Positions 8,522 to 59,135 of a stretch of DNA of 64,000 nucleotides are shown here, in pieces (positions within the stretch are counted from its first letter, which is position 1; every line of letters begins with the position of its first letter). A model generated the notes under the pieces. The model saw only the letters and a list, made by a program, of their open reading frames with translations, did no database searches and was not told the origin of the DNA. Made by a program: the position numbers and the translations under genes. Source of the stretch: Terriglobia bacterium. GTDB taxonomy: Bacteria; Acidobacteriota; Terriglobia; JAIQFV01. The DNA is taken from NCBI GenBank assembly GCA_020073085.1, contig JAIQFV010000009.1, positions 60,162 to 124,161 of the forward strand, given 5' to 3'.

Positions 8522-8528
8522 AGATGCG

Positions 8529-8627
8529 GTTGTCAGTTCTCAGTTGCCAGTGAAAGGCAAATTGCTATCAGCTCTTTACTGACAACTGGGAACCGGTCAC
8601 TGGCAACTGCTTTCGGCAACTGAGAAC
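8529..8627. repeat. Heptad-armed palindromic element, Q class (CAGTTGC/CAGTTCT arms)
   Basis: The arms are gttgtcagttctcagttgccag ... ctggcaactg..caactgagaac. It occupies the intergenic gap immediately upstream of the ATPase start. Confidence 0.6.
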
Positions 8628-8646
8628 TTCTTCCTGAGGAGAATAC

Positions 8647-9351: not shown

Positions 9352-9361
9352 ATTGCAGAAT

Positions 9362-9540
9362 TCAGTTCTCAGTTCTCAGAATTAAATTCTCAGTTGCCAG
9401 TAAGAACCTTTAGCCCGGAAGAATGACCCTGACAGATGCAAACAGAGAAGATGTTTTAAAGTGCATCCTTCGTTTCAAGACATAGAGTCGGCCGACAGCT
9501 AACAAGGGTTTACTGGCAACTGAGAACTGACAACTGACTG
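9362..9540. repeat. Heptad-armed palindromic element, Q class
   Basis: The arms are cagttctcagttctcag..ctcagttgccag ... ctggcaactgagaactgacaactg. Confidence 0.6.
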
Positions 9541-9565
9541 CAGACCACTTCTCGAGGCAAGCCCG

Positions 9566-12013: not shown

Positions 12014-12112
12014 ATTGCGGATTTCGGATTGCGGATTTCGGATTACTCAACCCCAGCCGAGGGAATCTATCGCCCATCATTGCGGCATCCGAAATCCGCA
12101 ATCCACAATCTG
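12013..12112. repeat. Heptad-armed palindromic element, R class (GGATTGC arms)
   Basis: The arms are gattgcggatttcggattgcggatttcggatt ... ccgaaatccgcaatccacaatc. A paralog of the 5827-5912 element. Confidence 0.6.
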
Positions 12113-12226
12113 AAATTGGATTGGAACGTGGAGGGCATGAGAGATGCCCCTTCCACTCTTGATCACAGTGCCAAAACCCGGAGGCAGGCAAGAAACCTGC
12201 GCTCCAAACCTGACAAGGAGAATGTA

Positions 12227-19987: not shown

Positions 19988-20178
19988 AGCAGCTGTCAGT
20001 GGTCAGCAACCGGCCGTAACCGATCAGCTATCGGCTGTCAGGTATGAGTAGAGCAAAACATGTCAAAAGACTTAATCACTTCGTTGATCTGATCATCTCA
20101 ATCTGATGCTATCTGAGAGTCAAATGCTGACAGCTTATTACTCGCAACCGACCACTGACCACTGGCCACTGACAACTT
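19988..20178. repeat. Heptad-armed palindromic element, C class (CAGCTAT/CAGCGAT arms), carrying a micro-ORF
   Basis: The arms are gcagctgtcagtggtcagc..gatcagctatcggctgtcagg ... gctgacagc..accactgaccactggccactgacaac. Confidence 0.6.
20044..20106 (+). CDS. Candidate micro-ORF, family A (MSRAKHVKRLNHFVDLIISI, 20 aa)
   Basis: Its N-terminal 9 aa and most of its nucleotides are shared with the 26-aa copies at 26109, 22815(-) and 25530(-). It appears to be a shortened or degenerate member. Confidence 0.3.
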   Translation: MSRAKHVKRLNHFVDLIISI

Positions 20179-20188
20179 TCTGGAGACG

Positions 20189-22694
<2,506 letters not shown>

Positions 22695-22696
<2 letters not shown>

Positions 22697-22902
22697 GTGT
22701 CGGGTGTCGGCAAGCAGCCGTCAGCATTCAGCTATCAGCCATCAGGTGAAATTGGATTCATATGATTGGACTCAACGAGCTGTTCTCGTCTTTTGACATC
22801 TTTCACTCTAATCATAGCTGCCTGCTGATAGCTGATCGCTAACGGCTAATCACTGACAACTGAGAACTGACAACTGCTTGCTGACACCTGGCACCCGACA
22901 CC
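22695..22902. repeat. Composite nested palindrome with G-class outer arms, C-class inner arms and one Q-class right arm, carrying a micro-ORF
   Basis: From the outside in: gtgtcgggtgtcgg then cagccgtcagcattcagctatcagccatcagg, then the core, then ctgatagctgatcgctaacggctaatcactg, then gacaactgagaactgacaactg, and finally ctgacacctggcacccgacacc. Confidence 0.6.
22735..22815 (-). CDS. Candidate micro-ORF, family A (MIRVKDVKRREQLVESNHMNPISPDG, 26 aa)
   Basis: 81 nt, exactly the same length as the copies at 26109-26189 and 25450-25530. The differences between copies are mostly synonymous or conservative (I/V, R/K, ccg/cca/cct Pro). Confidence 0.4.
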   Translation of the reverse strand: MIRVKDVKRREQLVESNHMNPISPDG

Positions 22903-22916
22903 TTCTGGAGGTTAAG

Positions 22917-25352
22917 ATGGAAACCATATTCCAGGATCTTCGCTACGGCTTCCGGATGCTGCTGAAGAATCCCGGCTTCACCGCTGTGGGCATTTTGACG
23001 CTGGCGCTTGGGATTGGCGCCAACACGGCAATCTTCAGTGTCGCGGATGCATTCCTGCTGAAGCCGCTTTCGATCCCCAACGAAAATCGCCTGGTGGTCG
23101 CTCTTGAAGTGGGGCCGAATCAGAGAGGCGATGATACCTCCAGTGTCTCTCCTGCCAACTTTGAGGACTGGAAGAGGCAGGCCAAAGCCTACGAAGCCAT
23201 GGCCGCTTATGATTGGGCGAATGTCAATCTGACCGGTCAGGGGGAGCCCGAGAAGGTCCAGGGATTCGAAGTCACCTCAAATTTCTTCGGGGTCGTGGGT
23301 ATCCAGCCCACTCTGGGCCGGGTTTTCCTTCCCGAGGAGGAAAACCGCGGACATGAACAGGTGGTGATTCTCAGTCATGGCCTGTGGCAACGCCGGTATG
23401 CTTCAGACGCCAACATTGTTGGTAAGAACGTGACGGTTGACGGAAGCACCTTTGAGGTCGTCGGAGTCATGCCCGCGGGGTTCAACTTCCCCACCACCGC
23501 GGAGTTGTGGATGCCGCTCGCACTGGACTCAGCGGCCCGCAGCGTTCGAAACTCACACTACCTGTTTGCCCTAGGTCTGCTCAAACCCGGGATGTCCACC
23601 TCCTCCGCACGAGCCGAATTGAAGACGCTTGCAGCGCAGTTGGCCCAGGCTTACCCGACCACCAACAAGGGTTGGTCAGTTCGTGTCACGTCCATGCGGG
23701 ATTTTGTGACCCAGGACTTAACGCGCCAGTACACCCTGATGTCCGTGGTGGCAGTCGCCTTTGTGCTCCTGATCGCCTGTGCCAACGTCGCCAATCTCCA
23801 GTTCGCCCGGGCCACGAGCCGCCAGAGAGAGATGGCCGTGCGGGTGTCCCTGGGCGCAGGCCGCTGGCGGATCATGCGGCAGCTCTTGACAGAAAGCATT
23901 GCGGTGTCCTTGCTGGGAGCGGCACTCAGCTTGCTTTGGGCCCAATGGGCCATCGAACTTATCCTGGCACACATGCCTCCGGAGACCGCCAAATTTATCC
24001 CCGCCTGGAATCATATCCGCCTGGATTACCGGGCCTTCTTATACACTTTGACCCTGGCCCTGCTGACCGGGATCCTCTCCGGGTTGATCCCTGCTTTTCA
24101 GAGCTCAAAGCCGGACCTGAACGAAGCCCTAAAGGAAGGCGGGCGCAGTGCATCGGCCGGCCAATCGAAACATCGTCTGCGAAGTTTCCTGGTCATGGCT
24201 GAAGTGGCGTTGGCCCTGATTCTGTTGGTGGGATCCGGATTGATGGTGAAGAGCTTTAGAGCCCTGCTGAATCTGAACCAGGGACTTGACCCGAACAATG
24301 TCCTCACCCTCCGCGTCAATCTCCCCCCGGGCAAGTACAAGACGCCGCCGCAAAGGGCGGCCTTCTATGACCAGGTGCTGCAGAATCTGAAAATGATCCC
24401 CGGATTCGAAGCTGCTGCCACTGCAACCAATATCCCCTATGGGGATTATGGGAGCAACGCGCTCATCAGCGTGGAGGGCAAGCCCTCAGTGAATTCCTCG
24501 GACCTCCGCTCGGCCACGAACCAGGTCATTAGCCCCGACTATTTTCGAATGATGCACATTCCGCTGCGAGCAGGGCGCGAGCTCACCGGCCAGGACGGGA
24601 AAGATTCTCCACCCGTGGCGGTGGTGAGCGAGTTGCTGGCGCGCCGGAACTGGCCCAATCAAGACCCGATCGGCAAACGAGTGAAGTTGGGGCTCGAAAA
24701 CAGCAGCTACCCCTGGATGACCGTGGTGGGCGTGGTCGGCGACGTCAAATATGACTGGAGCGAGCGGGATCCGAAACCCGCCCTCTATCATCCATTTCAA
24801 CAAGCTCCCTCGCTGAACTCTTACGTGGCGATCCGCTCCCAGGGTGATCCCAGGCAGTTCATCTCGGCGGTGCGAGACGCGATTGCCCGGGTCGATCCCC
24901 AACAACCCCTCTCCGACATTAAAACGTTGGACAAGGTGATCTCAGATTCCACGGTCGGCATTGCCTATGTTGCCGTCATCATGAGCGTCCTGGCAGTCAT
25001 CGCGTTGATTCTTTCGACCGTGGGCGTCTTCGGGGTGGTGTCTTATCAGGTGACGGAGCGAATCCATGAAATCGGAATCCGCATGGCCCTCGGCGCCAAC
25101 CCGCGCGATGTGCTGGGGATGGTTGTTGCCCGCGGAGCCTGGTTAACATTCGTCGGCTTGGGAGTTGGACTCGTTCTCTCGATCGGCCTGGCGCGCCTGT
25201 TGGCCAGCCTGATCTTTGGAATCGAGGCGATGGATTGGCTCACCTTCGGAAGTGTTTCTGTGACACTCGCCCTGGCCGCCCTGCTGGCCAGTTATCTCCC
25301 CGCTCGGCGCGCCACCCGGGTGGATCCGGTGGTCGCGCTGCGGCATGAATGA
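22917..25352 (+). CDS. ABC transporter permease, duplicated FtsX (ADOP family)
   Basis: Starts at the METIFQDLRYGFRMLLKNPGFT methionine. The upstream in-frame Met at 22878 lies inside the repeat. The C-terminus ends PARRATRVDPVVALRHE. Confidence 0.9.
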   Translation: METIFQDLRYGFRMLLKNPGFTAVGILTLALGIGANTAIFSVADAFLLKPLSIPNENRLVVALEVGPNQRGDDTSSVSPANFEDWKRQAKAYEAMAAYDWANVNLTGQGEPEKVQGFEVTSNFFGVVGIQPTLGRVFLPEEENRGHEQVVILSHGLWQRRYASDANIVGKNVTVDGSTFEVVGVMPAGFNFPTTAELWMPLALDSAARSVRNSHYLFALGLLKPGMSTSSARAELKTLAAQLAQAYPTTNKGWSVRVTSMRDFVTQDLTRQYTLMSVVAVAFVLLIACANVANLQFARATSRQREMAVRVSLGAGRWRIMRQLLTESIAVSLLGAALSLLWAQWAIELILAHMPPETAKFIPAWNHIRLDYRAFLYTLTLALLTGILSGLIPAFQSSKPDLNEALKEGGRSASAGQSKHRLRSFLVMAEVALALILLVGSGLMVKSFRALLNLNQGLDPNNVLTLRVNLPPGKYKTPPQRAAFYDQVLQNLKMIPGFEAAATATNIPYGDYGSNALISVEGKPSVNSSDLRSATNQVISPDYFRMMHIPLRAGRELTGQDGKDSPPVAVVSELLARRNWPNQDPIGKRVKLGLENSSYPWMTVVGVVGDVKYDWSERDPKPALYHPFQQAPSLNSYVAIRSQGDPRQFISAVRDAIARVDPQQPLSDIKTLDKVISDSTVGIAYVAVIMSVLAVIALILSTVGVFGVVSYQVTERIHEIGIRMALGANPRDVLGMVVARGAWLTFVGLGVGLVLSIGLARLLASLIFGIEAMDWLTFGSVSVTLALAALLASYLPARRATRVDPVVALRHE

Positions 25353-25593
25353 CAGTTGCCAGCAAGCAGTTGCCAGTTGTCAGTTCTCAGTTCTCAGTTG
25401 ACAATCGCAAGAGGTTAGTGCTCAGCTATCAGTTTTCTGCAATCAGCGATCAGCCTTCAGCTGAAATAGGATTCAATGGACCGGGAGTAATGAAACATTC
25501 GAATCTCTTGATATGTTTGACCTCAATCATAGCTGACTGCTGAGAGCTGATCGCTGACGGCTGGTTGCTGGCAACTGACAACTGGCAACTATC
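25351..25593. repeat. Composite nested palindrome with Q-class outer arms and C-class inner arms, carrying a micro-ORF
   Basis: The outer arms are cagttgccagcaagcagttgccagttgtcagttctcagttctcagttg ... ggttgctggcaactgacaactggcaact. The inner arms are cagctatcag..cagcgatcagccttcagctg ... agctgactgctgagagctgatcgctgacgg. Confidence 0.6.
25450..25530 (-). CDS. Candidate micro-ORF, family A (MIEVKHIKRFECFITPGPLNPISAEG, 26 aa)
   Basis: 81 nt. The peptide is conserved with the copies at 26109 and 22815(-) through synonymous and conservative codon changes. Confidence 0.4.
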   Translation of the reverse strand: MIEVKHIKRFECFITPGPLNPISAEG

Positions 25594-25614: not shown

Positions 25615-26019
25615 ATGCCATCCTCTCGCGAGATCGGATATGCTCTGTTGCGAGTGACCTTGGGTGTCCTGTTTGCGACCTACGGGATCGGAAAATTCCG
25701 GATGGGGGTCGGCAACTTTGCCGGCATGATGGAAAAAGAGTTCACCGGGAAACTCCCGATGGTCATGGTCTCGCCGTTCGGTTATCTAGTACCGTTCGCT
25801 GAACTGCTGGTCGGTGTCCTGCTGACCTTCGGGCTTTTCACCCTTCTCGCGCTCACCCTGGCCGGGCTGCTCATGATTGCACTGACCTTCGGGATGGCCC
25901 TCTTGGGGCAGGCTCCCGTTGTCGCGCAAAACCTCACTTACGTCCTGGCGATTTTTGTTCTTTTGTGGACCGCGGAAAATAATGGATATTCATTGGATCG
26001 ACTGCGGCAGGGTAGGTAA
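25615..26019 (+). CDS. DoxX-family membrane protein
   Basis: 134 aa. Begins YALLRVTLGVLFATYGIGKF. Four predicted TM helices. Confidence 0.7.
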   Translation: MPSSREIGYALLRVTLGVLFATYGIGKFRMGVGNFAGMMEKEFTGKLPMVMVSPFGYLVPFAELLVGVLLTFGLFTLLALTLAGLLMIALTFGMALLGQAPVVAQNLTYVLAIFVLLWTAENNGYSLDRLRQGR

Positions 26020-26023
26020 CACT

Positions 26024-26244
26024 TGTCAGTTGTCAGTTGCCAGAAATAAGTTGCCAGGTCTCACTTGCCATCAAGGAGCTGTCAGCGATCGGCCATCAGC
26101 AGTCAGCTATGATTAGAGTGAGACACATCAAACAATATGAGGACTTCATTGATTCCAGTCACTTGAATCCGATTCCAGCTTATGGCTGATAGCTGAATGC
26201 TGACAGCTCTTTACTGGCAACTGACAACTGAGAACTGACAACTG
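26024..26244. repeat. Composite nested palindrome with Q-class outer arms and C-class inner arms, carrying a micro-ORF
   Basis: The outer arms are tgtcagttgtcagttgccag..gttgccag ... ctggcaactgacaactgagaactgacaactg. The inner arms are gctgtcagcgatcggccatcagcagtcagct ... ggctgatagctgaatgctgacagc. Confidence 0.6.
26109..26189 (+). CDS. Candidate micro-ORF, family A (MIRVRHIKQYEDFIDSSHLNPIPAYG, 26 aa)
   Basis: The start codon is the last heptad of the left C-arm (cagctATG). The stop TGA lies inside the right arm (ggcTGAtagctg). Confidence 0.4.
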   Translation: MIRVRHIKQYEDFIDSSHLNPIPAYG

Positions 26245-26269: not shown

Positions 26270-26938
26270 ATGATGATCAAACTCGTTGATTTGGAGAAGT
26301 TCTACGCTCATGGTGTTTCAAAGACCTTTGTGCTGCGGCGCGTGAGTTTTGATGTCCAGGAGGGAGAGTTCGTATCGATTATGGGCCCGTCGGGTGCAGG
26401 CAAATCCACGGTGCTCCATATCCTGGGGATGTACGACAGCGACTGGAGCGGCGAGTTCTATTTCCTCGACCAGCCGATTCACAAACTCGACAGGAAGAAA
26501 CGGGCGGAATTCAACAAGAAGTATGTCGGCTTCGTTTTTCAAAGCTACCACCTGCTGGACAACCTGACGGTCTATGAAAACCTCGAGATCCCCCTCTCGT
26601 ACCGGGACGTCAAGAAGAGTCAGCGAGAGAGCATTGTGTGCGATGTCCTGGATCGATTTCAAATTGTGGGCAAGAAGGATCTCTTTCCAAACCAGCTCTC
26701 CGGGGGACAGCAGCAGTTGGTGGCCGTCGCCCGAGCCGTGATCGCCAACCCCAAAGTCATTCTCGCCGACGAACCCACGGGGAACCTGCACTCCAGCCAG
26801 GGCGAGGAGATCATGGAGCTCTTCAAGAAGCTGAACGCCGAGGGGGCCACCATCATACAGGTCACTCATTCCGACAAGAATGCTTCTTACGGCAGCCGCA
26901 TCATCAAGCTCCGCGACGGATGGGTCGTGAATGATTAG
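26270..26938 (+). CDS. ABC transporter ATP-binding protein, MacB/LolD type
   Basis: Contains a Walker A (GPSGAGKSTVLHILG), the signature LSGGQQQLVAVARAV and a Walker B ([11 protein letters not shown]). Confidence 0.9.
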   Translation: MMIKLVDLEKFYAHGVSKTFVLRRVSFDVQEGEFVSIMGPSGAGKSTVLHILGMYDSDWSGEFYFLDQPIHKLDRKKRAEFNKKYVGFVFQSYHLLDNLTVYENLEIPLSYRDVKKSQRESIVCDVLDRFQIVGKKDLFPNQLSGGQQQLVAVARAVIANPKVILADEPTGNLHSSQGEEIMELFKKLNAEGATIIQVTHSDKNASYGSRIIKLRDGWVVND

Positions 26939-26949
26939 CGTTCCTGCCC

Positions 26950-27385
26950 CGGGTGCCACAGGCATCATGCTTGGGTGCCGCAGGCATCGTGCTCTTTACG
27001 ATGCCTGCGCCAGGTTCCCGATAAGAACACTGGCTGTTCCCGCAACGTCCCTGAAACGACAGATGGGGTGCCGCAGGTATCGTGTTCTTTACGATGCCTG
27101 CGCCAGGTTCCCGATGAGATCACGGGCTGTTCCCGCAACGTCCCTGAAACGACAGATGGGTGCCGCAAGTATCGTGCTCTTTACGATGCCTGCGCCAGGT
27201 TCCCGATGAGATCACGGGCCGTTCCCGCAACGTCCCTGAAACGACAGATGGGTGCCGCAGGCATCATGCTCTTTACGATGCCTGCGCCAGGTTCCCGATG
27301 AGATCACTGGCTGTTCCCGCAACGTCCCTGAAACGACAGATGGGGTGCCGCGGGCATCGTGCTCTTTACGATGCCTGCGCTGGAA
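26950..27385. repeat. Tandem direct repeat with a 92-bp unit, about 4.6 copies, each holding an internal 11-bp hairpin
   Basis: The unit is ggtgccgcaggcatcgtgctctttacgatgcctgcgccaggttcccgatgagatcacgggctgttcccgcaacgtccctgaaacgacagatgg. Copies differ by only a few SNPs. Each has the stem gcaggcatcgt / acgatgcctgc. Confidence 0.85.
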
Positions 27386-27524: not shown

Positions 27525-27917
27525 TTATGCTCCCGGCATGCAATTCTTCAAATACTCTTTTATTCTCTCCTTGTCCTCAATTTCCTGATCCCCTTTGAAA
27601 TACATCTCGATAAACTCGACTTTTAAGATTTCCCGGTAAAACGCGTAAATCACTCTGAGACCGCTCTTTGAACCGCGCCCTTTTAATGCTCTGCAGGCAA
27701 ATTTCTTCAGCTTGTAAATCTCAACTGCCTCAGTGCCGAATCCTTGGACTCGAAAGACACTTTGGTTGTCAATGTCCTTGAGATGGTAAAGCTCGATGGC
27801 GTCCCGCTTCGCGGTCTGCAAGTCAGACTCGAGGGTTCTGAATCTCTTGAGTAATTTCCTGAAGTCCTTTGTGAAGGAAGCCGTCTCGCAGTAGTCAATC
27901 CTCGTCGGAGGTTCCAT
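27525..27917 (-). CDS. RelE/ParE-fold toxin candidate, partner of the Panacea-domain antitoxin
   Basis: The C-terminal region reads GLRVIYAFYREILKVEFIEMYFKGDQE, which resembles the RelE core (yRiiYrvd..v.vl.ighRkd). It overlaps the upstream antitoxin stop by 23 nt. The start is taken as the internal Met (MEPPTRIDYCETASF...). Confidence 0.55.
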   Translation of the reverse strand: MEPPTRIDYCETASFTKDFRKLLKRFRTLESDLQTAKRDAIELYHLKDIDNQSVFRVQGFGTEAVEIYKLKKFACRALKGRGSKSGLRVIYAFYREILKVEFIEMYFKGDQEIEDKERIKEYLKNCMPGA

Positions 27918-28683
27918 AGTCACGGACTGAAGTGTCAGCAGTTCGATAAAATACCGACTCGTAATCCAACTTTTTTCCTGATTGGGCGCTAATCCAGGGG
28001 ACATCTTTGTGGGAGAGATCAGAGAGAGCCGTGGCTGTCAGATCCGAAAGGCGCCGCATTTCCCAGTCAATATGCTCCTTTTCCTGGCCGTTTAGAATAC
28101 TCAAATCGGGCACTGTCGCCGGATTGACCAGGTACTTTGTCTGGGGGTATTGATAAAATTTACTCTTGACCGGTTCCACATCGCCTTTCTTCACGAGTTC
28201 GTCAATCAGCTTATCAAAGAGAAGCGGCGTAGGGCCATGTTGGTTCTTCAGGTAGACCAAACCCATTAATTGCTCTTCATGTTTCTCGTAATAATCAAAA
28301 TCAATGAAATAGAGCAGCTTGTACAGGGCGGTCATACCAATGTTCGGCTTGCCACCGACTTCTTTGAGGATATAGAGCAGGACCTGCTTGAATTTGTCCA
28401 TCCTCTCCTGCGGGACACTGATTCTGAACTCTTCTCTTCGCTTTCTTGGCTGAATCTTACCTTTCTCAACTCTTACGGTGACATGAGGTTCCTCTTCCCG
28501 TATGAAACTTTCAAATGGGATGCCAAAAACCTCCGCCAGTTTCCTTGCCTCCGACAGATTCAACTCCCGCTTACCTTGCTCAATCTGGACATATGTCGGT
28601 CGCGACATTCTGACTTCTGACGCCAAATATTCCTGCGTCAGCTTGCGCTTCTCACGCAATTTTCGAATAAATTCTGAGAGCAT
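27895..28683 (-). CDS. Antitoxin candidate with an N-terminal HTH-XRE domain and a C-terminal DUF4065 (Panacea) domain
   Basis: The N-terminus has LREKRKLTQEYLASEVRMSRPTYVQIEQGKRELNLSEARKLAEVFGI, a Cro/C1-type HTH. The C-terminus has KLLYFIDFDYYEKHEEQLMGLVYLKNQHGPTP, typical of DUF4065. Confidence 0.65.
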   Translation of the reverse strand: MLSEFIRKLREKRKLTQEYLASEVRMSRPTYVQIEQGKRELNLSEARKLAEVFGIPFESFIREEEPHVTVRVEKGKIQPRKRREEFRISVPQERMDKFKQVLLYILKEVGGKPNIGMTALYKLLYFIDFDYYEKHEEQLMGLVYLKNQHGPTPLLFDKLIDELVKKGDVEPVKSKFYQYPQTKYLVNPATVPDLSILNGQEKEHIDWEMRRLSDLTATALSDLSHKDVPWISAQSGKKLDYESVFYRTADTSVRDYGTSDED

Positions 28684-29746: not shown

Positions 29747-30011
29747 GCGTTACAGTCGATTTCGAGCGCAGATTATCCAATCTGTAGGATTCTGGCATAT
29801 CCACAGGTCTTTCACAGGCGAATGTCCTGTGAATTCCACTCTTATGCACCAAGAATGATTGATGGAGTGTGAACCCAATTGAATATTCCGCCAATCTTTA
29901 TGCTGGGAATTGTCGAATGTCGCAGCCTGACCCCAGTTGTTCTGCAATCTTGGCAAATGCTTTGACGAGGAGCCCCAATAACCTGCTTTCCTCCTGAGGC
30001 GGCGGTGACCC

Positions 30012-30243
30012 AACTCCGTAGGAGTGGCATAGTTATAGACCGGCCTGCTTTCTCTTCCGCTTCGGTTGAACCCCGTCAGGGGTGACATCTGAGCTGCTAT
30101 GCTCATCCACGAAGAGAGATCCATTCTCAAATCTGGGGGGAGGAGGGCTGGTTCGCAGCCCCTATGCCACCCCTGACGGGGTTCAACCCAGAATGAAGAG
30201 AAGCAGTCGGGGAAGGCTATAAAGATACCACTCCTACGGAGTT
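30012..30243. repeat. Large palindromic element (two ~75-bp inverted arms around an ~83-bp core); MITE-like or structured RNA
   Basis: Arm 1 is aactccgtaggagtgg...ggttgaaccccgtcaggggtg. Arm 2 is its reverse complement at about 85% identity (cacccctgacggggttcaacc...ccactcctacggagtt). Confidence 0.6.
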
Positions 30244-30753
30244 GGGGTAGGACCCATTCAAAATGAACGCGTGTCGGCTGCGAAGGCGGGGGGCGGGCGC
30301 GATCGAGCGTGTTATCAGCGCCGCCTGATCAACCGTTTTTACTGGCAAGAAATTTTCTGCGAGCTGCGTTGGCGCCTTTATCTATATAAGTCTCAGGGGC
30401 GTCTGAAAAATATTCAACTTTTGCAAATTAGCCCTGTCCAGTTCTGGCTTGTCCAGATTAGGATTAGGGCCGAATAGATGCGACTGTCTGTATCCTGCAG
30501 CTTTGCCAACCCCTCCACCGACTGGGTGGTCCGGGTCATTTGGTTGCGGCGAGCGCGGAATCGACGGTCCTGTGTGAATTCAGGGAAGAGCCCCCACCGG
30601 GCACAGAGCACCCGGCGTGGCTACCAAGGCTCTGGGAATCGCAACCGTCGGCTGAAATGCGCGTGGCAGCGATGCCAAACTTATCTGTACTCAACTGTGG
30701 TTGTCCTCAAAGCTTCCTTGACCTATAAACATTTCCAATTTCTCCCCTAACCA

Positions 30754-34928: not shown

Positions 34929-35155
34929 AGTTGTCAGTTCTCAGTTGTCAGTGAGGAGCTGCCACACTCATTTGATTCTATTTACGGCCGCTGTAATAGA
35001 ACCAACGTCATAAAAACCATGACTCTTCTTGCGCGTTTTTCAAAGCTGATGGCTGAAAGCTGACAGGCTGAAGTTCAACTCTAACATCTCGCAACTGACA
35101 ACTGAGAACTGGCAACTGGGAACTGAGAACTGAATTCTGGCAACTTCAGTCTAGA
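34929..35155. repeat. Heptad-armed palindromic element, Q class
   Basis: The arms are gttgtcagttctcagttgtcagtg ... caactgacaactgagaactggcaactgggaactgagaactg. The right arm ends 5 nt before the ADOP-fragment start. Confidence 0.6.
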
Positions 35156-35159
35156 AATC

Positions 35160-35651
35160 ATGAATGCATTCTTCAAAGACCTCCGCTTCGGCATTCGCGT
35201 GCTGGTGAAAAGCCCGGGATTCACAGCCATCGCTGTGATCACCCTCGCTCTCGGCATTGGGGCCAATTGCGCCATCTTTAGCGCCGCTAACGCCATCCTC
35301 CGCTCTCTCCCAGTCCGGGATCCGGATCGATTGATCTGGGTTTGGGATGGTCAACCTCAGCTGAAGCAGGCGCCCGCCTCCTATACGGATTTCGTGGACT
35401 GGCGGAACATGAACCTTGTTCTTGAAGAGATGTCCGCAGGCCGCGGCGCCAACTTCAACCTGACCGGGACCGGTGATCCCGAGCGTCTCCCGGGGTTCAA
35501 ATATCAGGTGTCGCGTGTCAGGAGACAGGATGCTGGGGTTTTAGGACACTTGCGACTGAGGTCAGAGGCCAGAAGACTGAAGTCAGGAATCGGAAGACAG
35601 AAGTCAAAAGGTACAGGCTGGAAGTCGGATGAATCAAAAACCATTCTCTAA
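35160..35651 (+). pseudogene. N-terminal fragment of an ADOP permease gene (about 113 aa of roughly 800), truncated into a G-class repeat
   Basis: It begins [41 protein letters not shown], through [14 protein letters not shown]. The reading frame then runs into the gtgtcgcgtgtcagg repeat. No FtsX domain follows. Confidence 0.7.
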
Positions 35652-35699
35652 TTTTTCGCTTCTTGCACCCAGACACCCGACACCTGGCACCCGACACCT
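35505..35699. repeat. Heptad-armed palindromic element, G class
   Basis: The arms are caggtgtcgcgtgtcagg ... cccagacacccgacacctggcacccgacacc. The core contains cagaaga/cagaagt heptads. Confidence 0.6.
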
Positions 35700-35719
35700 T
35701 TGCGTATAAGGAGAAAACT

Positions 35720-36547: not shown

Positions 36548-36558
36548 AGAGCAGGGTT

Positions 36559-37213
36559 CAGGTGCCGGGGGTCAGGTGTCGGGTGCCAGGTGTCAGAGGA
36601 GCGTTGGGCCAATGAACGCCCGTGAAGGCAACTGAGCCCGCAATGCCCAATCGGGGAGGGCGATGTAACTCCCAAACCCTCACCGAGCACTCTCTGCCAT
36701 AAGCTGCCGCTCGTTAGGTTTTCGCCTTCCTAAGGCTCCTAAATAGGCCAGCCAGCATACGTCCTACCTCCGCTGTCAGGTTAAGGAGCGGCTCCACGGA
36801 ATTCATTGGCACATATGATAGTCGAGACGCCAGCACTAGGTGTGTTTCCAATTCCATCAGGGAACCATTTGCCACCGAAAGATGATGTAGATAGTCTCCC
36901 AAATGTTCACGACCATGTCCTTCTGCAATGTTTGCTGGGACAGAAACAGCTGAACGCTGGATCTGACACGTTAAGCCATACATTTCTCTTCTTGGCAAGA
37001 GTTGAGTCAACTTATAGCTTTCGACGACAAGGTCCATTAACTTTTGCCAGACAACGAGGTCTCTAAAACTACGAACGGACATGGGCGCCTTCATTTCCGG
37101 GGGAAGGGTTTTACAAGAACCTATGATAATTTCAAACAATACACCAATTATGAGATTCTGCCACCCTATAACCAGCCCCTGACACCCGGCACCCGACACC
37201 TGGCACCTGACAT
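36559..37213. repeat. G-class palindromic element whose arms enclose a complete four-helix-bundle gene
   Basis: The left arm is caggtgccgggggtcaggtgtcgggtgccaggtgtcag and the right arm is cctgacacccggcacccgacacctggcacctgaca. Confidence 0.6.
36714..37094 (-). CDS. Four-helix-bundle protein (TIGR02436, the 23S rRNA intervening-sequence protein family; Avd-like fold)
   Basis: Contains FRDLVVWQKLMDL ... LTCQIQRSAVSVPANIAEGHGR ... ANGSLMELETHLVLASRLSYV. The longer upstream frame to 37262 reads through the repeat arm. Confidence 0.7.
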   Translation of the reverse strand: MKAPMSVRSFRDLVVWQKLMDLVVESYKLTQLLPRREMYGLTCQIQRSAVSVPANIAEGHGREHLGDYLHHLSVANGSLMELETHLVLASRLSYVPMNSVEPLLNLTAEVGRMLAGLFRSLRKAKT

Positions 37214-37279
37214 CTGGAATTCTCATCAATGTAAATTTTGGTTGCAGCGACTGAAGAGCCATAGCATCATGTACACCCT

Positions 37280-53527: not shown

Positions 53528-54241
53528 ATGAATTCTTCGAGCCCAGCCATTATTCGCATGGAAGCGGTCAGTAAGGTCTTCTTTACAGAAGAAGTCGAAA
53601 CACATGCCCTTGAAGGAACCCACCTGGAGATCAACCAGGGGGAATTTGTCGCCATTGCGGGCCCTTCCGGCTGCGGCAAATCGACTCTCCTCTCGATCCT
53701 GGGACTGCTCGACACCCCGACCGAGGGGAAATACTGGCTGAGTGGTCATGCCGTCGAGTCTCTGGACCGCGCCGAACGGGCCCGCGTAAGGAATCGTGAG
53801 ATTGGATTTGTGTTCCAGAGCTTCAATCTCATTGGTGACCTGACCGTTTTCGAGAACGTGGAGCTGCCCCTGACCTACCGCGGGATGCGGGCGGCAGAGC
53901 GCAAACAGCGGGTCGTGGCGGCTCTTGAGAAGGTCGGCATGGCCCATCGAGTCAAACACCTCCCCAGCCAACTCTCTGGCGGGCAACAGCAGCGGGTCGC
54001 CGTTGCTCGGGCCCTGGTCGGGGAACCTTCCATCCTCCTGGCTGATGAGCCCACTGGCAATCTGGACTCCAAGAACAGCGAAGCGGTTATGGAACTCCTC
54101 CATGAACTCCATCAAAAAGGGGCCACAATCTGCATGGTCACGCACGACCCTCGTTTCGCCCAGTCCGCGGAACGAACCATCCATCTGTTTGATGGTCGGG
54201 TGGTCAGCGAGGACGAAAGCGAACCAGCGGAAGTGCAGTAG
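53528..54241 (+). CDS. ABC transporter ATP-binding protein, MacB/LolD type
   Basis: Contains a Walker A ([15 protein letters not shown]) and the signature [15 protein letters not shown]. It is 75% identical to the 8647 ATPase. Confidence 0.9.
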
Positions 54242-54246
54242 AGAGC

Positions 54247-54465
54247 AGTTGTCAGTTCTCAGTTGCCAGTTGCCAGTTGCCAGAAAACAGTTGCCAGTTC
54301 TCAGTGGCCAGTTGCCAGTGAAAACCGTTTATTCCAATGGTCTTTTTTGTCGCAGATGTGTGCACAGCTGTTTCGCAGATACCCTCGATTGGGATGTGAA
54401 TCCAAATTTGATGAAAATCGCGAATCCCTTGTCATCCACTGACAACTGAGAACTGACAACTGGCT
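54247..54465. repeat. Heptad-armed palindromic element, Q class, carrying a family-B micro-ORF
   Basis: The left arm is a CAGTTGC array repeated nine times or more (cagttgtcagttctcagttgccagttgccagttgccag...). The right arm is ctgacaactgagaactgacaactgg. The core is homologous to the 58950-59135 element. Confidence 0.6.
54301..54435 (-). CDS. Candidate micro-ORF, family B (MTRDSRFSSNLDSHPNRGYLRNSCAHICDKKDHWNKRFSLATGH, 44 aa)
   Basis: It shares an in-frame peptide at about 60% identity with the minus-strand ORF starting at 59094 (MTPDFRFSPDSDTHADRGHLRNSRARACNKR...). Confidence 0.35.
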   Translation of the reverse strand: MTRDSRFSSNLDSHPNRGYLRNSCAHICDKKDHWNKRFSLATGH

Positions 54466-54491
54466 ACTGCTTTCTGACAGCTGCTTCTTTC

Positions 54492-56253
54492 ATGGAAACA
54501 CTGCTTCAAGACCTGCGATATGGCCTTCGATTGCTGGCCAATAACCCCGGCTTCACGCTGGTTGCGCTTCTCGCCCTGGCACTGGGAATTGGGGCCAACT
54601 GCGCCATCTTCAGCGTGGTGAACGCGGTCCTTCTCCGTCCACTGCCCTATCCGGAATCCAACCGCCTGATTTTTCTCGCCGAGAGAGAACCCCAGTTGGA
54701 TGGGATGTCCGTGGCTTACCCCAACTTCTCGGATTGGCGCGAACAAAACACCGTTTTTGAGAAGATCGCCGTTTTTCGACGGCAAAGTTACAACCTGACC
54801 GGAACGGGCGAGCCTGAACGGCTGATCGGTGGGCAGGTATCCGCCGATCTCTTCCCAATCCTCAGGGCCGCCCCGGAACTGGGACGCACTTTCTCCGCGG
54901 ACGAAGACAAACCTGGGGGTAATCAAGTTGTCATCTTAAGCCATGGATTGTGGCAACGTCGCTACGGGTCCGATCCGTACCTTCTGGGTAAGACCCTCAT
55001 TTTGAGCGGCAGAGCTTACACCGTGATCGGAATCATGCCGGCTGAATACCAGTTTCCCAGTCGAGTCGAGCTGTGAGTACCGGTGGGGCAGGAGTCTGGA
55101 CAACCTGGCTGGCAGGAACGCGGCAATCATCCCGGGCTTTATGGAGTAGCCCGCCTCAAGACAGGCGTATCCCTTGGCCAGGCTCGGGCCGAGATGGATA
55201 CCATCGCCGCTCGACTCGAGAAACAATATCCCCGGACCAACACGGGCAACCGGGTGACCATGAGCCCTTTGCTCGAGGTGTTTGTAAAGGAGATTCGCCC
55301 CCTCTTGTTGGTTCTTCTGGGAGCGGTCGGTTTTGTACTGTTGATTGCCTGCGCCAATGTCGCCAATCTTCAGCTCACGCGCGCGGCTGCACGGCAGAAA
55401 GAAATTGCTATTCGCATGGCACTCGGTGAGCCCTGATTACTTTCGGACGATGGGTATCCCGCTGTTGCGCGGACGCACTTTTACGGTTCAAGACACGAAG
55501 GATGCCCCCAAGGTGGTTGTCATCGACGAGAGTTTTGCAAAACAATACTGGCCCGGCGAGGATGCCATTGGACGGCATTTGACATTTGGCGGACATGATT
55601 CCAAGAGTGTTATGAACACCGTCGTGGGGATTGTAGGCAGGGTCAAAATGGAGGGATTGGATACCGACTCCAACCGCGTCCAGGCCTATCAACCCCTTAC
55701 TCAAAACACATGGAATGGAATGACCTTTGTCTTGCGGACCACGGCGGACCCTCTGGGGTTGGTCTCTGCGGCGCGAAAGCAAGTCCTCGCGGTCGACCCC
55801 GACGAACCCATGTACAATGTAAGGAGCATCGAACAAGTCTGGGAAGAGTCGGTGGCACCACAGCGTTTGAACCGGTTGTTGTTTGGCCTCTTTGCAGGAT
55901 TGGCCCTACTGCTCTCCGCCGTCGGGATCTATGGGGTGATGGCCTACGCGGTAACGCAACGGACGCATGAGATCGGGATACGAATTGCCCTCGGCGCGGG
56001 AGCTGGACAAGTGGTTCGATTGGTCGTCGGGCATGGAATGTTGCTGGCGCTGACTGGAATTGCGATCGGATTGACAGCAGCATTGGCGCTGACCCGCCTC
56101 ATGTCGACCTTTCTTTTTGGGGTCAGAGCCTTCGACCCGTTGACCTTTGTGGTTATTTCATTCTTGCTGGGAACTGTGGGCCTCGTCTCGAGCTATATTC
56201 CGGCGCGCAAGGCCACGAAAGTCGATCCCATCATTGCGCTCAGGTATGAGTAA
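54492..56253 (+). pseudogene. Decayed ADOP permease gene, with an in-frame TGA at a conserved Trp codon and an internal deletion/frameshift
   Basis: Its N-terminus ([22 protein letters not shown]) and C-terminus (PARKATKVDPIIALRYE) are intact. A TGA at 55074-55076 sits where the paralogs have the (E/D)LW(M/V)P Trp codon. The frame changes near 55425, where the first FtsX block ends abruptly (AIRMALGEP*) and the frame 1 reading ([16 protein letters not shown]) picks up from about 55345, about 80 nt upstream. The total is only about 590 codons. Confidence 0.7.
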
Positions 56254-56418
56254 GTGTCGGGTGTCAGGTGTCGGGTGTCAGAAAGACCCACTCGATTACT
56301 TTGAAACTGAAGGCGAGGCCAGAAATCGGAAGCCAGAAATCAGAAAATACATTCTTATTCCTCCTGGCATCGCTGGGGTGCCCTTTCCCTGACACCCGGC
56401 ACCTGACACCCGACACCT
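56252..56418. repeat. Heptad-armed palindromic element, G class
   Basis: The arms are agtgtcgggtgtcaggtgtcgggtgtcag ... ccctgacacccggcacctgacacccgacacc. The core has cagaaat/cggaagc heptads. Confidence 0.65.
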
Positions 56419-56440
56419 CAAATCCAATGGAGGAAAGCAC

Positions 56441-58942: not shown

Positions 58943-59094
58943 AGAGAGGAGTTGTCGGTTGCCAGTTCCCAGTTTCCAGTGAACACGGATTCCTCGGATG
59001 GTCTTTTATTGCAGGCCCGGGCACGGCTATTTCGCAAATGCCCTCGATCGGCATGGGTATCCGAATCTGGTGAAAATCGAAAGTCCGGTGTCAT
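58873..59094 (-). CDS. Candidate micro-ORF, family B (MTPDFRFSPDSDTHADRGHLRNSRARACNKRPSEE...); its 3' end is uncertain
   Basis: The first roughly 35 codons are conserved in frame with the 54301-54435 ORF. The listed ORF runs on into the 3' end of the regulator gene, which is probably not real coding sequence. Confidence 0.3.
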   Translation of the reverse strand: MTPDFRFSPDSDTHADRGHLRNSRARACNKRPSEESVFTGNWELATDNSSLHNPYFWSLRYNPLRLKPNACAA

Positions 59095-59135
59095 CCACTG
59101 GCAACTGGGAACTGGCAACTGAGAACTGACAACTC
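58950..59135. repeat. Heptad-armed palindromic element, Q class, carrying a family-B micro-ORF
   Basis: The arms are gttgtcggttgccagttcccagtttccagtg ... ctggcaactgggaactggcaactgagaactgacaactc. The core is about 75% identical to the 54320-54440 core. Confidence 0.6.

Follow-up and report, generated by a model that had tools for sequence, protein, structure and literature searches.

What are the palindromic 7-mer arrays that fill gene gaps in this stretch of DNA, and what keeps them there? The question arises most sharply at positions 54246–54465 of the 64-kb window (the whole stretch of DNA analyzed here), where an array of CAGTT heptads faces a complementary AACTG array across a non-repetitive core. 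As set out below, the flagged sequences prove genuine: they are inserts that form hairpins and evolve fast, and they lie in the gene gaps of an uncultured soil acidobacterium.

Anatomy of the Q-class palindromes

Tandem-repeat detection with TRF, combined with phase-chained motif counts, identified in the window seven palindromes of the form (CAGTTNN)n…(NNAACTG)n plus a right arm standing alone, together termed the Q class (Table 1). CAGTT-type left arms begin at 8529, 9356, 25367, 26023, 34929, 54246, and 58958, and AACTG-type right arms at 9512, 22852, 25568, 26213, 35092, 54438, and 59097; every copy listed in an initial annotation made from the letters alone was recovered. Chains of at least two heptads numbered 15, compared with 0.14 (maximum 2) in fifty first-order Markov shuffles. 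The arrays are intergenic, with the NAACTGA-related unit [C/G]AACTG[A/G] in at least two to three tandem copies, and seven of the eight pair with a complementary array. The lone right arm at 22852–22876 is likewise genuine and forms the middle layer of a nested palindrome (22695–22903).

For the flagged element, a left arm of nine or more heptads had been claimed; TRF reports 10.6 heptads at 74% match over 54246–54319, comprising eight exact CAGTTNN units and two degenerate ones (CAGAAAA and CAGTGGC). Its arms are very unequal (10.6 left vs 3.6 right heptads), as are those of the PF05635 cassettes considered below (2 vs 5–10 heptads), and hairpin formation alone is an insufficient explanation of array length. 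Arm complementarity among the hairpin elements ranges from 74 to 96% and all 16 of 16 elements fold better than shuffled sequences (z −2.3 to −10.4; −4.1 for the 54246 copy), the terminal inverted repeats forming a long stem around a loop. Within the arrays, TRF also detected higher-order periods of 14 and 21 nt, and the Q arms have in common a variant order of ~25 nt—CAGTTGT CAGTTCT CAGTTGC CAGTG—that is 92–100% identical between unlinked loci. The Q vocabulary is not the only one: the 64 kb contain at least 16 palindromes built of heptad repeats. The initial annotation had the Q arms and cores right and missed the several heptad vocabularies, the fixed polarity, and the cassette architecture known from intervening sequences (IVSs) and four-helix-bundle genes.

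Table 1 Heptad-armed elements and adjoining genes in the 64-kb window; fold z is relative to shuffled sequences
Feature	Position	Strand	Fold z	Remarks
Short Q-class element	8526..8628	+	-5.5	HlyD adaptor / ABC ATPase spacer
Q-class element, unique core	9356..9539	+	-5.3	ABC ATPase / ADOP permease spacer
B-family core, fourth member	19990..20177	+	-2.3	GACCACT-type right arm
Nested palindrome	22695..22903	+	-7.8	Outer P-class GGTGTCG / CCTGACA; inner arms CAGCNAT / ATNGCTG enclose a B-family core; Q right arm only (22852–22876)
Q outer arms, CAGCNAT inner arms, B-family core	25350..25590	+	-5.7	Upstream of DoxX gene
Q outer arms, CAGCNAT inner arms, inverted B-family core	26020..26244	+	-9.2	Downstream of DoxX gene
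Q-class element	34929..35145	+	-3.5	3.4 left / 6 right heptads; HEAT-repeat gene / ADOP N-terminal fragment spacer
P-class palindrome (GGTGYCR)n ... (YGRCACC)n	36552..37216	.		576-nt loop with four-helix-bundle gene
PF05635 / TIGR02436 four-helix-bundle protein gene	36714..37094	-		126 aa; 23S rRNA intervening-sequence protein, Avd-like; Pfam E 1.3e-34; NCBIfam TIGR02436 and NF008911; PDB 2GSC, E 9e-22
ABC-transporter ATPase gene	53528..54241	+		Stop codon adjoins 54246 element
Left arm of flagged element	54246..54319	+		~10.6 heptads: CAGTTGT CAGTTCT (CAGTTGC)x3 CAGAAAA CAGTTGC CAGTTCT CAGTGGC CAGTTGC CAGTG; begins 4 nt past ATPase stop codon; outer 25 nt 96% complementary to 54438–54462; inner 31 nt aligns with left arm of 58950 copy
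Core A1	54320..54437	+		No repeats, no ORF; 75% identical to 58998–59096; no Rfam match, no IVP remnant
Right arm of 54246 element	54438..54465	+		ACTGACA ACTGAGA ACTGACA ACTGGC; stops 26 nt before ATG at 54492
ADOP/MacB-type permease gene, truncated and frameshifted	54492..56253	+		Downstream of 54246 element
P-class element	56254..56418	+	-7.7	Broken ADOP gene / DUF4097 gene spacer
Q-class element with core A2 (58982–59095)	58950..59134	+	-6.6	Sigma-54 response regulator / histidine kinase spacer; arms 91% complementary; MFE -96 kcal/mol

Placement between genes and the terminator hypothesis

Heptad arrays occupy 17 of the 31 spacers of at least 80 nt in the window and none of the real divergent (promoter) spacers; one element lies 3′ of the last gene of a convergent pair. 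Element starts fall within −7 to +7 nt of the upstream stop codon in 14 of 15 cases, and element ends 11–38 nt before the next start codon in 12 of 13. The window contains no rRNA, and the elements sit between protein-coding genes. Their neighbors are mostly those described initially (an ABC ATPase, ADOP, DoxX, or regulator gene ahead of the next gene start), except that the gene upstream of 8529 encodes an HlyD-type adaptor and that upstream of 34929 a HEAT-repeat protein.

Long stable stems directly 3′ of stop codons, one of them behind a convergent pair, are features that favor transcription terminators or attenuators between genes, the function suggested in the initial annotation. This suggestion was not supported. 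A consensus scan placed no promoters in the elements and no terminators in those between 53000 and 61000, none scoring as an intrinsic terminator; the right arms are followed by at most 3–4 T rather than a U tract; and several elements part genes that need co-expression, inside obligate ATPase–permease operons or between response regulator and kinase. Moreover, one Q-armed IVP cassette (one built around a PF05635 gene, see below) has a canonical terminator hairpin of its own ahead of the element. We consequently regard termination or attenuation as highly improbable: the Q-class elements are not classical terminators. Searches against Rfam gave no match in the window at gathering thresholds, and none to the elements at E values up to 5. 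We also considered the repeated CTGA of the right arm, which places TGA stops in all three frames, as a selected feature, and rejected it since other heptad classes contain no stop codons.

Fixed polarity of the arms

Across 29 loci from several phyla, CAGTT-then-AACTG pairs outnumbered the opposite order by 36 to 1; polarity is fixed. AACTG arrays, too, lie in the sense orientation upstream of start codons (39 vs 10 in Acidobacteriota, 20 vs 1 in Cyanobacteria), and the Q right arms likewise run forward shortly 5′ of start codons, ending 11–38 nt before them. Unpaired AACTG arrays are common upstream of start codons in Occallatibacter and cyanobacteria, which suggests a possible role for the right arm by itself; Occallatibacter savannae AB23 is one carrier of AACTG arrays.

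Taken further, the right arm could be the functional unit, with (NNAACUG)n in the 5′ leader serving as a binding or standby site for a translation-related factor and the complementary left arm as its sequestering partner, so that the pair would act as a post-transcriptional switch. The sense bias just 5′ of start codons, present even in unpaired arrays, and the short distance from Q right arms to starts are in keeping with such a site, as is the likeness to TAACTGA, from which the unit differs at the first base only and with which it overlaps in taxa (Thiocystis, Cyanobacteria, Bacteroidota). However, many other heptad vocabularies behave alike, making a single sequence-specific factor unlikely, most relatives carry no elements at orthologous positions, and no candidate factor was identified. 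Binding site and switch alike are thus unlikely, in our estimation, to be what the elements are for.

Turnover of arms and spacers

The long left arm at 54246 had been taken as a product of microsatellite-type slippage. At that locus, six independent assemblies from six samples (99.96–100% identical, gapless) showed no heptad polymorphism over 54246–54465, so that slippage at this locus in this population is not supported. Slippage is supported instead by the paralogue, by an orthologue, and by cassettes of other Terriglobia. The paralogous 58950 copy has 4.5 left heptads vs 10.6 at 54246, and a relative (L127; 95% identical kinase, 86% nucleotide identity) has ~10 right heptads vs 5.4 here, its orthologous element having homologous arms around an unrelated core. 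Other Terriglobia have Q-armed cassettes whose right arms number 5, 6, 7, or 8 copies in samples that do not otherwise differ, and also 4 vs 5 copies between samples with an identical IVP; the tandem-heptamer stem thus varies between strains in the L127 orthologue and in Q-armed IVP cassettes.

Turnover extends to whole elements. Among ~39 measurable orthologous spacers, most span only 5–25 nt, arguing that the elements were gained and are not ancestral, and the expanded ones hold palindromes of other heptads; one and the same orthologous spacer carries palindromes of unrelated heptads in different lineages. The P-class element at 56254–56418, together with 54242–56253, is missing from the orthologous regions of relatives.

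Core families and exchange between arms

The cores of the 54246 and 58950 copies were noted initially as about 75% identical; we measured 75.2% over 101 nt, and 75.9% over 174 nt (E 7e-28) with the inner arm included. A second core family (B) comprises four copies in both orientations. Core copies are 68–76% identical, none recent, and no homologue of core A or B was present in ~175 fetched loci. The initial annotation had concluded that the whole element was duplicated, which is supported for the A pair; the overall picture is more combinatorial than simple duplication and includes arm/core exchange. Cores appear to have been swapped while the arms around them stayed conserved, and the breakpoints fall where arm meets core. 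Right arms, in turn, have been co-duplicated with the 5′ ends of ADOP genes: 54438–54465, taken together with the ADOP 5′ end that follows it, has homologues at 22851–23059, 35094–35299, 20145–20310, and 9512–9690. Q arms pair as well with the arms of other elements, and their co-adaptation within elements is not significant (p 0.45); P-class arms are co-adapted within elements, with native pairs at −49.4 vs −41.3 kcal/mol for non-native ones (permutation p 0.0006).

Could all of this be strictly local? Arrays might arise by slippage in tolerated spacers and become palindromic through fold-back template switching or selection for a hairpin in RNA or DNA; they would then be neither mobile nor related to IVP cassettes, and vocabularies would be shared only through biased mutation and the duplication of genes nearby. 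Such an origin would suit the unrelated-heptad palindromes within one orthologous spacer, the 14- and 21-nt periods typical of slippage, the travel of right arms with duplicated ADOP 5′ ends, the within-element co-adaptation of P-class arms (again, p 0.0006), and the way in which elements fill spacers exactly to the coding limits. Yet symmetric fold-back copying does not predict a 36:1 polarity, and local origin sits poorly with a ~25-nt variant order that is 92–100% identical between unlinked Q loci, with homologous arms retained in an 86%-identical relative, and with non-repetitive cores that recur at different loci in both orientations. Nor does it account for homologous IVP genes across phyla having the same arm classes, with class tracking IVP similarity. 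We find a purely local origin, including the lack of kinship with IVP cassettes, doubtful.

Exchange and gain also raise the possibility of classical MITEs, non-autonomous transposons whose heptad-structured terminal inverted repeats would be recognized by a transposase with its gene in another part of the genome. In cyanobacteria, some MITEs and small dispersed repeats (Nezha, SDR) associated with heptamer repeats are known, which counts in favor. The elements have conserved ~25-nt inverted termini of fixed inward polarity, these termini enclose several different cores, which occur in both orientations, and relatives differ in the presence or absence of elements. But target-site duplications are absent, the bases flanking the arms being complementary (AGAG...CTCT) instead of direct repeats; copies at 68–76% identity, none of them recent, are far from near-identical; and the 64 kb contain no transposase gene. 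For a mobile element, insertion flush with the stop codon (14 of 15 cases) would imply an unusual choice of target, and arms differ in length by whole heptads, which ends set by a transposase do not. Classical MITEs are therefore an improbable explanation.

Heptad arms around PF05635 genes

Complementary heptad or octad arms flank 22 of 23 inspected PF05635 genes, which encode four-helix-bundle intervening-sequence proteins (IVPs), plus those at two further loci (P0183 and P0124). Among the arm-flanked genes are the one in the window and one inside a bona fide LSU (23S) rRNA gene. At three independent Terriglobia loci, the arms around the IVP gene are themselves of the Q type. IVP cassettes also lie inside operons in Nostoc PCC 7120 and Anabaena sp. 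90. Similarity between IVPs goes with arm class (Spearman 0.45), reciprocal best pairs share arms, and homologous IVP genes of different phyla are enclosed by arms of the same classes. The P-class element 36552–37216 is the ORF-bearing counterpart of the ORF-less elements.

That element is the only one in the window with a four-helix-bundle ORF in its loop; none of the eight Q-class elements contains an IVP gene. When the window was searched in six frames with a profile of 13 IVP sequences (two mis-framed), the one intact gene was the only match, and no IVP remnant appeared in the ORF-less cores. Comparison of the Q cores with the non-coding parts of Q-armed IVP cassettes returned arm-derived matches only; a 26-nt similarity between core A1 and one locus (L032; z 4.5 among 56 tests) was too weak to use. 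With neither an IVP gene nor detectable IVP or cassette similarity in the cores, descent of the Q class from ORF-bearing elements is unproven. A single-seed jackhmmer search matched IVP genes in one of 120 pattern-scan loci, a false negative caused by subfamily divergence, and tblastn of the IVP against phage genomes gave no match. Our literature search retrieved no paper on heptad palindromes in Acidobacteria and, beyond the Coxiella IVS, no link between PF05635 genes and flanking heptad arrays.

A model for heptad-armed hairpins

With their anatomy, placement, polarity, turnover, the copy-number polymorphism of related elements, and an architecture that they share with IVP cassettes and an rRNA IVS observed directly, we give about an even chance to the reading that the Q-class palindromes are ORF-less, IVS-like hairpin elements with tandem-heptad stems. 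A G/T-rich 5′ arm (CAGTTNN)n and an A/C-rich 3′ arm (NNAACTG)n enclose a variable loop or core, the same build as in 23S rRNA IVSs and PF05635 (Avd-like) gene cassettes. The elements occupy intercistronic and 3′ spacers and turn over quickly at the DNA level. In the model, arms would lose or gain whole heptads via slippage, and, being near-interchangeable, would offer portable homology by which recombination could swap, copy, or invert cores between loci. Within a transcribed operon, the imperfect stem of 25–45 bp would most likely constitute an RNase III processing site. Cleavage there would part neighboring cistrons: the upstream message would end in the GU-rich half, and the downstream gene would have a leader of unstructured AC-rich heptads. 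Transcribed stems are, we infer, probably RNase III substrates; a benefit to the host is conjectural, and the elements may be largely selfish or neutral.

A broader view is possible, although we lean against it: heptad-armed hairpins may form one widespread, unrecognized selfish or mobile class, whose autonomous form would encode an Avd-like PF05635/TIGR02436 protein recognizing its own arms, and whose forms or footprints would include the 23S IVS, cyanobacterial STRR, TAACTGA arrays, and the ORF-less acidobacterial palindromes (54246–54465 among them). The tandem heptamers of cyanobacteria (~1990) and rRNA IVSs with an “S23p” ORF (of similar date) have stayed unexplained and been treated as unrelated curiosities. 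Our data put both in one frame—a hairpin, sometimes with an Avd-like gene and sometimes without, whose heptad arms keep one polarity; operons and rRNA tolerate it, and it turns over fast via slippage and arm-mediated exchange. If true, this would provide a testable origin for IVSs, would suggest a nucleic-acid partner for a protein family that is very abundant (one subfamily has at least 6,981 clusters) but has no known function, and would explain much of the non-coding DNA of soil Acidobacteria (here, 17 of 31 longer spacers). It would also be a warning for annotation, as start codons and small ORFs are miscalled across arrays that are unstable in assembly and copy number.

Comparison with known systems

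Several intergenic or intercistronic operon palindromes can shape mRNA stability and processing, including REP/BIME, REPIN, and the intercistronic RNase III sites of phage T7. Their resemblance to Q-class elements is only functional. REPs are single palindromes of 20–40 bp with GTAG or CGTC heads, linked to RAYT transposases and devoid of tandem heptads or a variable core; no RAYT gene was seen in the 64-kb window.

Heptamer arrays are known from other bacteria. The cyanobacterial STRR heptamer repeats were reportedly described by Mazel et al. in 1990. TAACTGA heptamers form intergenic direct repeats in marine Beggiatoaceae, Cyanobacteria, and Bacteroidetes. Of their 170 sets, only 1 is inverted, and they are not reported from Acidobacteria or Planctomycetes; in Beggiatoaceae they were proposed as a site for a translation-related factor (MacGregor 2015, PMC4679880). 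The Q class has nearly the same unit, its arrays likewise run forward and lie between a few and some tens of nucleotides ahead of start codons, and the taxa overlap. Whereas TAACTGA arrays have no partner arm or core, Q arrays are hairpin-paired and begin at the upstream stop codon, and in place of the direct repeats alone of TAACTGA and STRR arrays, we found seven of eight arrays paired in the window and 36 paired cases across loci.

Paired heptads are known from the P6b hairpin of the Nostoc tRNA-Leu(UAA) group I intron, whose arms are complementary 7-nt motifs (TDNGATT or NNTGAGT) and which shows length variation, stem inserts, and repeated swaps of motif class (PMC4476775). The GGATTTT/CGGATTN arms found here fit the TDNGATT motif. 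P6b differs in lying within an intron and not between genes, in motifs unlike the Q class, and in that a link to a four-helix-bundle gene or to stop/start codon boundaries is not described for it.

The nearest parallel is the 23S rRNA IVS. In Coxiella burnetii (helix 45), its stem consists of heptameric GACAGAT repeats of strain-variable number, the S23p ORF lies in the loop, RNase III excises it at the first repeat, and it is regarded as a selfish element (PMC4990558). Q-class elements differ in their location in mRNA spacers instead of rRNA helices 25/45, in having no ORF, and in cores unrelated to IVP cassettes; RNase III excision is a feature known from Coxiella and other IVSs. Many rRNA IVSs, for their part, carry no four-helix-bundle ORF. 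What the two have in common is a long stem of terminal inverted repeats, tandem heptamers, and an optional four-helix-bundle ORF; an Azospirillum 23S IVS places CAGAGGA/CGGATGA arms around an IVP gene, and the window's own element at 36552–37216 has the same build.

Anatomy and placement of the heptad palindromes

Tandem Repeats Finder (TRF) called matching arrays at every site where the initial annotation had placed Q-class palindromes, which have a CAGTTNN-type left and an NNAACTG-type right arm. Read from the sequence, the 54246-54465 element is bordered on its left by the stop codon TAG and AGAG, followed by the array CAGTTGT CAGTTCT (CAGTTGC)x3 CAGAAAA CAGTTGC CAGTTCT CAGTGGC CAGTTGC CAGTG, whose length by TRF (Table) bears out the nine or more heptads first proposed. 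A non-repetitive core of 118 nt leads to the right arm (ACTGACA ACTGAGA ACTGACA ACTGGC), 26 nt from the next ATG. The window holds 15 chains of at least two CAGTT or AACTG units at 7-nt spacing, against a mean of 0.14 in 50 first-order shuffles, with all left-type chains to the left of right-type chains. The 54246 and 58950 copies are 75.9% identical across 174 nt (E 7e-28) and 75.2% over the core alone, in agreement with the initial estimate of about 75%; their predicted folds reach -77 kcal/mol (z -4.1 versus dinucleotide shuffles) and -96 kcal/mol (z -6.6), respectively.

Q is only one of several heptad vocabularies in the window: TRF and a period-7 scan also detected GGTGTCA/CCTGACA (P), CAGCNAT/ATNGCTG, GATTGCG/ATCCGCA and CAGAAGC-type arrays, and nesting of one vocabulary inside another is frequent. 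The right arm at 22852, described initially as a lone one, is a genuine array, but it forms the middle layer of nested palindromes.

All 16 heptad palindromes catalogued in the window have fold z-scores between -2.3 and -10.4. Elements start from 7 nt inside to 7 nt after the upstream stop codon in 14 of 15 cases and end 11-38 nt ahead of the next start codon in 12 of 13. By crude gene calls, heptad arrays occupy 17 of the 31 window spacers of at least 80 nt, among them all co-directional spacers between 8.5 and 26.3 kb, and none of the real divergent, promoter-bearing ones. The window elements matched no Rfam family, and a scan found no consensus promoters within them and no intrinsic terminators in those between 53000 and 61000. 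Sequence features and operon logic thus contradict the terminator or attenuator activity once suggested for them, making intergenic transcription terminators an extremely improbable explanation. Heptad arms also contain the longest-ORF starts of three genes (Table), which automated gene calling will probably misplace.

Table. Features of the window, which is rich in ADOP-family duplicated permeases and ABC ATPases
Feature	Position	Strand	Remarks
Left arm of 54246 element	54246-54319		10.6 copies of 7-nt unit (TRF)
Core family A	54320, 58982		Window self-comparison
Core family B	19990, 22746, 25433, 26100		68-77% identical; both orientations relative to genes; window self-comparison
Right arm/ADOP 5′ block	9512, 20127, 22852, 35094, 54438		Window self-comparison
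Inserted block	54242-56440		A1 element (carrying the 54246 core), broken ADOP gene, P element
ADOP/MacB-type permease gene	54492-56253		Truncated; three ORFs of 194, 117 and 302 aa
IVP gene	36714-37094	minus	126 aa; PF05635, also TIGR02436 'four helix bundle protein'; in loop of P-class palindrome 36552-37216
DoxX/MauE gene	25615-26019		134 aa
Inverted complete B-type elements	25395-25590, 26049-26244		Bracket DoxX/MauE gene; 196 nt, 71% complementary; composite-cassette-like layout
Longest-ORF starts through heptad arms	12029-12127, 22878-22916, 35663-35719
ADOP N-terminal fragment (ORF)	35160-35651		70% DNA identity to 54438-54631
Tandem 92-nt unit	26951-27380		4.4 copies, 94% identity; directly 3′ of ABC ATPase gene 26270-26938; hairpin GCAGGCATCGTGCTCTTTACGATGCCTGC in each unit; not a heptad array; no Rfam match
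Nested non-heptad palindrome	30009-30246		Outer arms 30 nt, 90% complementary; inner 48 nt, 81%; in region of HTH and SocA/Panacea antitoxin-like genes (27895-28683)

Core and arm as separable modules

Self-comparison of the window upheld the kinship of the 54246 and 58950 cores (family A) and added a second family, B (Table). Q arms of different loci have in common the variant order CAGTTGT CAGTTCT CAGTTGC CAGTG at 92-100% identity, and a Q left arm forms as good a duplex with the right arm of another element as with that of its own (-33.9 versus -33.7 kcal/mol, p 0.45); P arms, unlike Q arms, are co-adapted within elements (p 0.0006). The right arm and the initial ~150-200 nt of the ADOP gene that follows it form one homologous block that recurs at five sites, and part of the spread in the window is therefore plain gene duplication. 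Within the right arm of the 54246 element, A-type homology joins ADOP-block homology, as would be expected of recombination through the arm.

Turnover at orthologous spacers

The histidine kinase 3′ of the 58950 element, a protein that one source names as coming from an uncultured Acidobacteriia (Terriglobia) population, serves well as an anchor for orthology. In locus L127 (kinase 95% identical in aa, 86% in nt), alignment of the arms with the window stops on either side at the arm/core junction; between them lies an unrelated core of 158 nt, and the right arm has ~10 heptads versus 5.4. The response regulator-kinase spacer carries CAGCNAT arms in L128 (kinase 86% aa) and is repeat-free in L130 (75% aa). 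In L129 (78% aa) the spacer (3604-4579) has grown to 950 nt, with GGATTTT/AAAATCC arms and an inserted IVP gene, that is, a gene for the four-helix-bundle '23S rRNA intervening-sequence protein'. A GGATTTT...AAAATCC palindrome of its own lies on each side of this gene, and the unit fits the class I motif TDNGATT of Nostoc introns. Some 39 further orthologous metagenome loci have measurable spacers, mostly of 5-25 nt; the expanded ones hold small palindromes of other heptads (TGAACGT/ACCTTCA, GCTGAAT/TTCAGCA, GGGGTTG/CAACCCC, CGGATTT/AAATCCG). Thus, elements have been gained repeatedly at the same place, and the operon does not have them as a conserved feature. A classical MITE is a very unlikely source: the elements show neither target-site duplications nor recent copies, and the window has no transposase gene.

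In L128 and L130 a DUF4097 gene directly follows the ATPase, identifying the block between the two in the window as an insertion (Table). Its split permease gene is identical in the assemblies covering it and hence a real pseudogene.

A fixed polarity across phyla

A scan for four Q-type heptads, with each species represented by one genome, returned at least 120 loci. Among the matches listed, Acidobacteriota account for ~59 (mostly Terriglobia, the cultured Occallatibacter savannae among them), Cyanobacteria for 24 and Planctomycetota for 13; others come from Bacteroidota, Thiocystis, Poribacteria and further taxa. Where arrays among these matches face each other at no more than 300 nt (29 loci), the CAGTT array comes first in 36 cases versus 1; the exception, at a contig end, probably joins two neighbouring elements. 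Other vocabularies follow the rule too: of 57 complementary array pairs, 48 have the G/T-richer arm on the 5′ side, and most exceptions pair an element's right arm with the left arm of its downstream neighbour.

Again among the matches listed, AACTG arrays before start codons lie on the sense strand in 39 versus 10 cases in Acidobacteriota and 20 versus 1 in Cyanobacteria, and CAGTT arrays follow stop codons in 37 versus 13. Occallatibacter has unpaired AACTG arrays ~20 nt 5′ of a start. This orientation is that of the TAACTGA repeats of Beggiatoaceae, which are almost never inverted and carry no report from Acidobacteria or Planctomycetes (PMC4679880). An unstructured A/C-rich leader may be tolerated beside a ribosome-binding site where its G/U-rich complement is not, which would account for the polarity. 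Control of translation by the right arm, on the lines proposed for TAACTGA, agrees with the orientation relative to genes and may operate alongside our main model, yet it leaves convergent-spacer elements and the many other vocabularies unexplained; we consider it quite improbable.

IVP cassettes and arm slippage

The core of the P-class palindrome 36552-37216 matches part of L129 and encodes an IVP (Table). This protein has PDB 2GSC as a relative and the DGR protein Avd as a more distant one, the latter relationship also being stated in PMC10053308. We inspected 24 IVP genes: one from the window, two from L129, one each from L032, L098 and L102, and 18 from plasmids (mostly cyanobacterial, by tblastn). 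A G-rich tandem array just 5′ and a complementary C-rich array at or near the stop codon flank 22 of 23, the count leaving aside one L129 gene at a contig start, whose visible downstream flank has C-rich heptads. The units are heptads (octads in two cases), for example (GGTGACA)n...(CTGTCAC)n, (GTAGGGA)n...(TCCCTAC)n, (GGGAACA)n...(CTGTTCC)n and (CAGGAGT)n...(CTTCTGA). IVP genes sit inside operons (cas6-cas4, cas10-cmr3, two ribonucleotide reductase subunits, PhoU-response regulator); in Azospirillum (L192), one with CAGAGGA/CGGATGA arms lies within a bona fide LSU rRNA gene. In Terriglobia, three independent loci (L032, L098/P0124 and P0183) have an IVP gene between Q-type arms.

Slippage of the heptads, predicted initially for the 54246 array, was seen in its IVP-bearing sisters. 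In L205-L213 the (CTGAGAA)n right arm, ~40 nt 3′ of the IVP stop codon, has 5, 6, 7 or 8 units depending on the sample, with identical IVP and otherwise identical flanks; in L201-L204 it has 4 or 5 around another identical IVP. The ATPase locus itself, however, is 99.96-100% identical without a gap in six independent assemblies from six samples, so that this population shows no visible polymorphism of the 54246 array.

IVP similarity correlates with the arm unit (Spearman 0.45 overall, indicative only since pairs are not independent): L189/L190 (80% identical) have a common unit, L032/L098 (74%) a common Q unit, and the window and Anabaena sp. 90 proteins (53%) GGTGTCA and GGTGACA. Purely local slippage and fold-back would account for the heptad variety at one orthologous spacer, but not for this co-variation, the 36:1 polarity or the order of variants that Q arms conserve, and is an unlikely origin of the arrays.

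Relation to intervening sequences

The Coxiella IVS has a 28-bp terminal stem with two or three strain-variable GACAGAT heptamers and an S23p ORF in its loop, and RNase III cuts at the first repeat (PMC4990558); repeat-built stem and loop ORF are features it has in common with IVP cassettes. Q-class elements resemble both in their heptad-built stem, fixed polarity, tolerance within transcription units and heptad-step length variation; unlike IVP cassettes, they lack an ORF. We therefore file them as, most likely, ORF-less, IVS-like hairpin elements, while finding no sequence trace of ORF-less copies deriving from ORF-bearing ones. By analogy with IVS experiments, the transcribed stem would be cut by RNase III, which in an operon would separate the cistrons and leave A/C-rich heptads as a downstream leader. 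Breakpoints and interchangeable arms suggest that cores may move between loci, and flip, through recombination in the arms. Since most orthologous spacers have no element, we regard the elements as largely selfish or neutral passengers, with placement filtered by selection.

The literature searched gave no account of abundant paired, core-bearing heptad palindromes in Acidobacteria, of their fixed polarity, or of near-universal complementary heptad flanking of PF05635 genes. Heptamer repeats, TAACTGA arrays, the Coxiella IVS heptamers and the heptad-built P6b hairpin of Nostoc introns (PMC4476775) are already on record; tentatively, all of these might belong with the present elements to a single unrecognised class.
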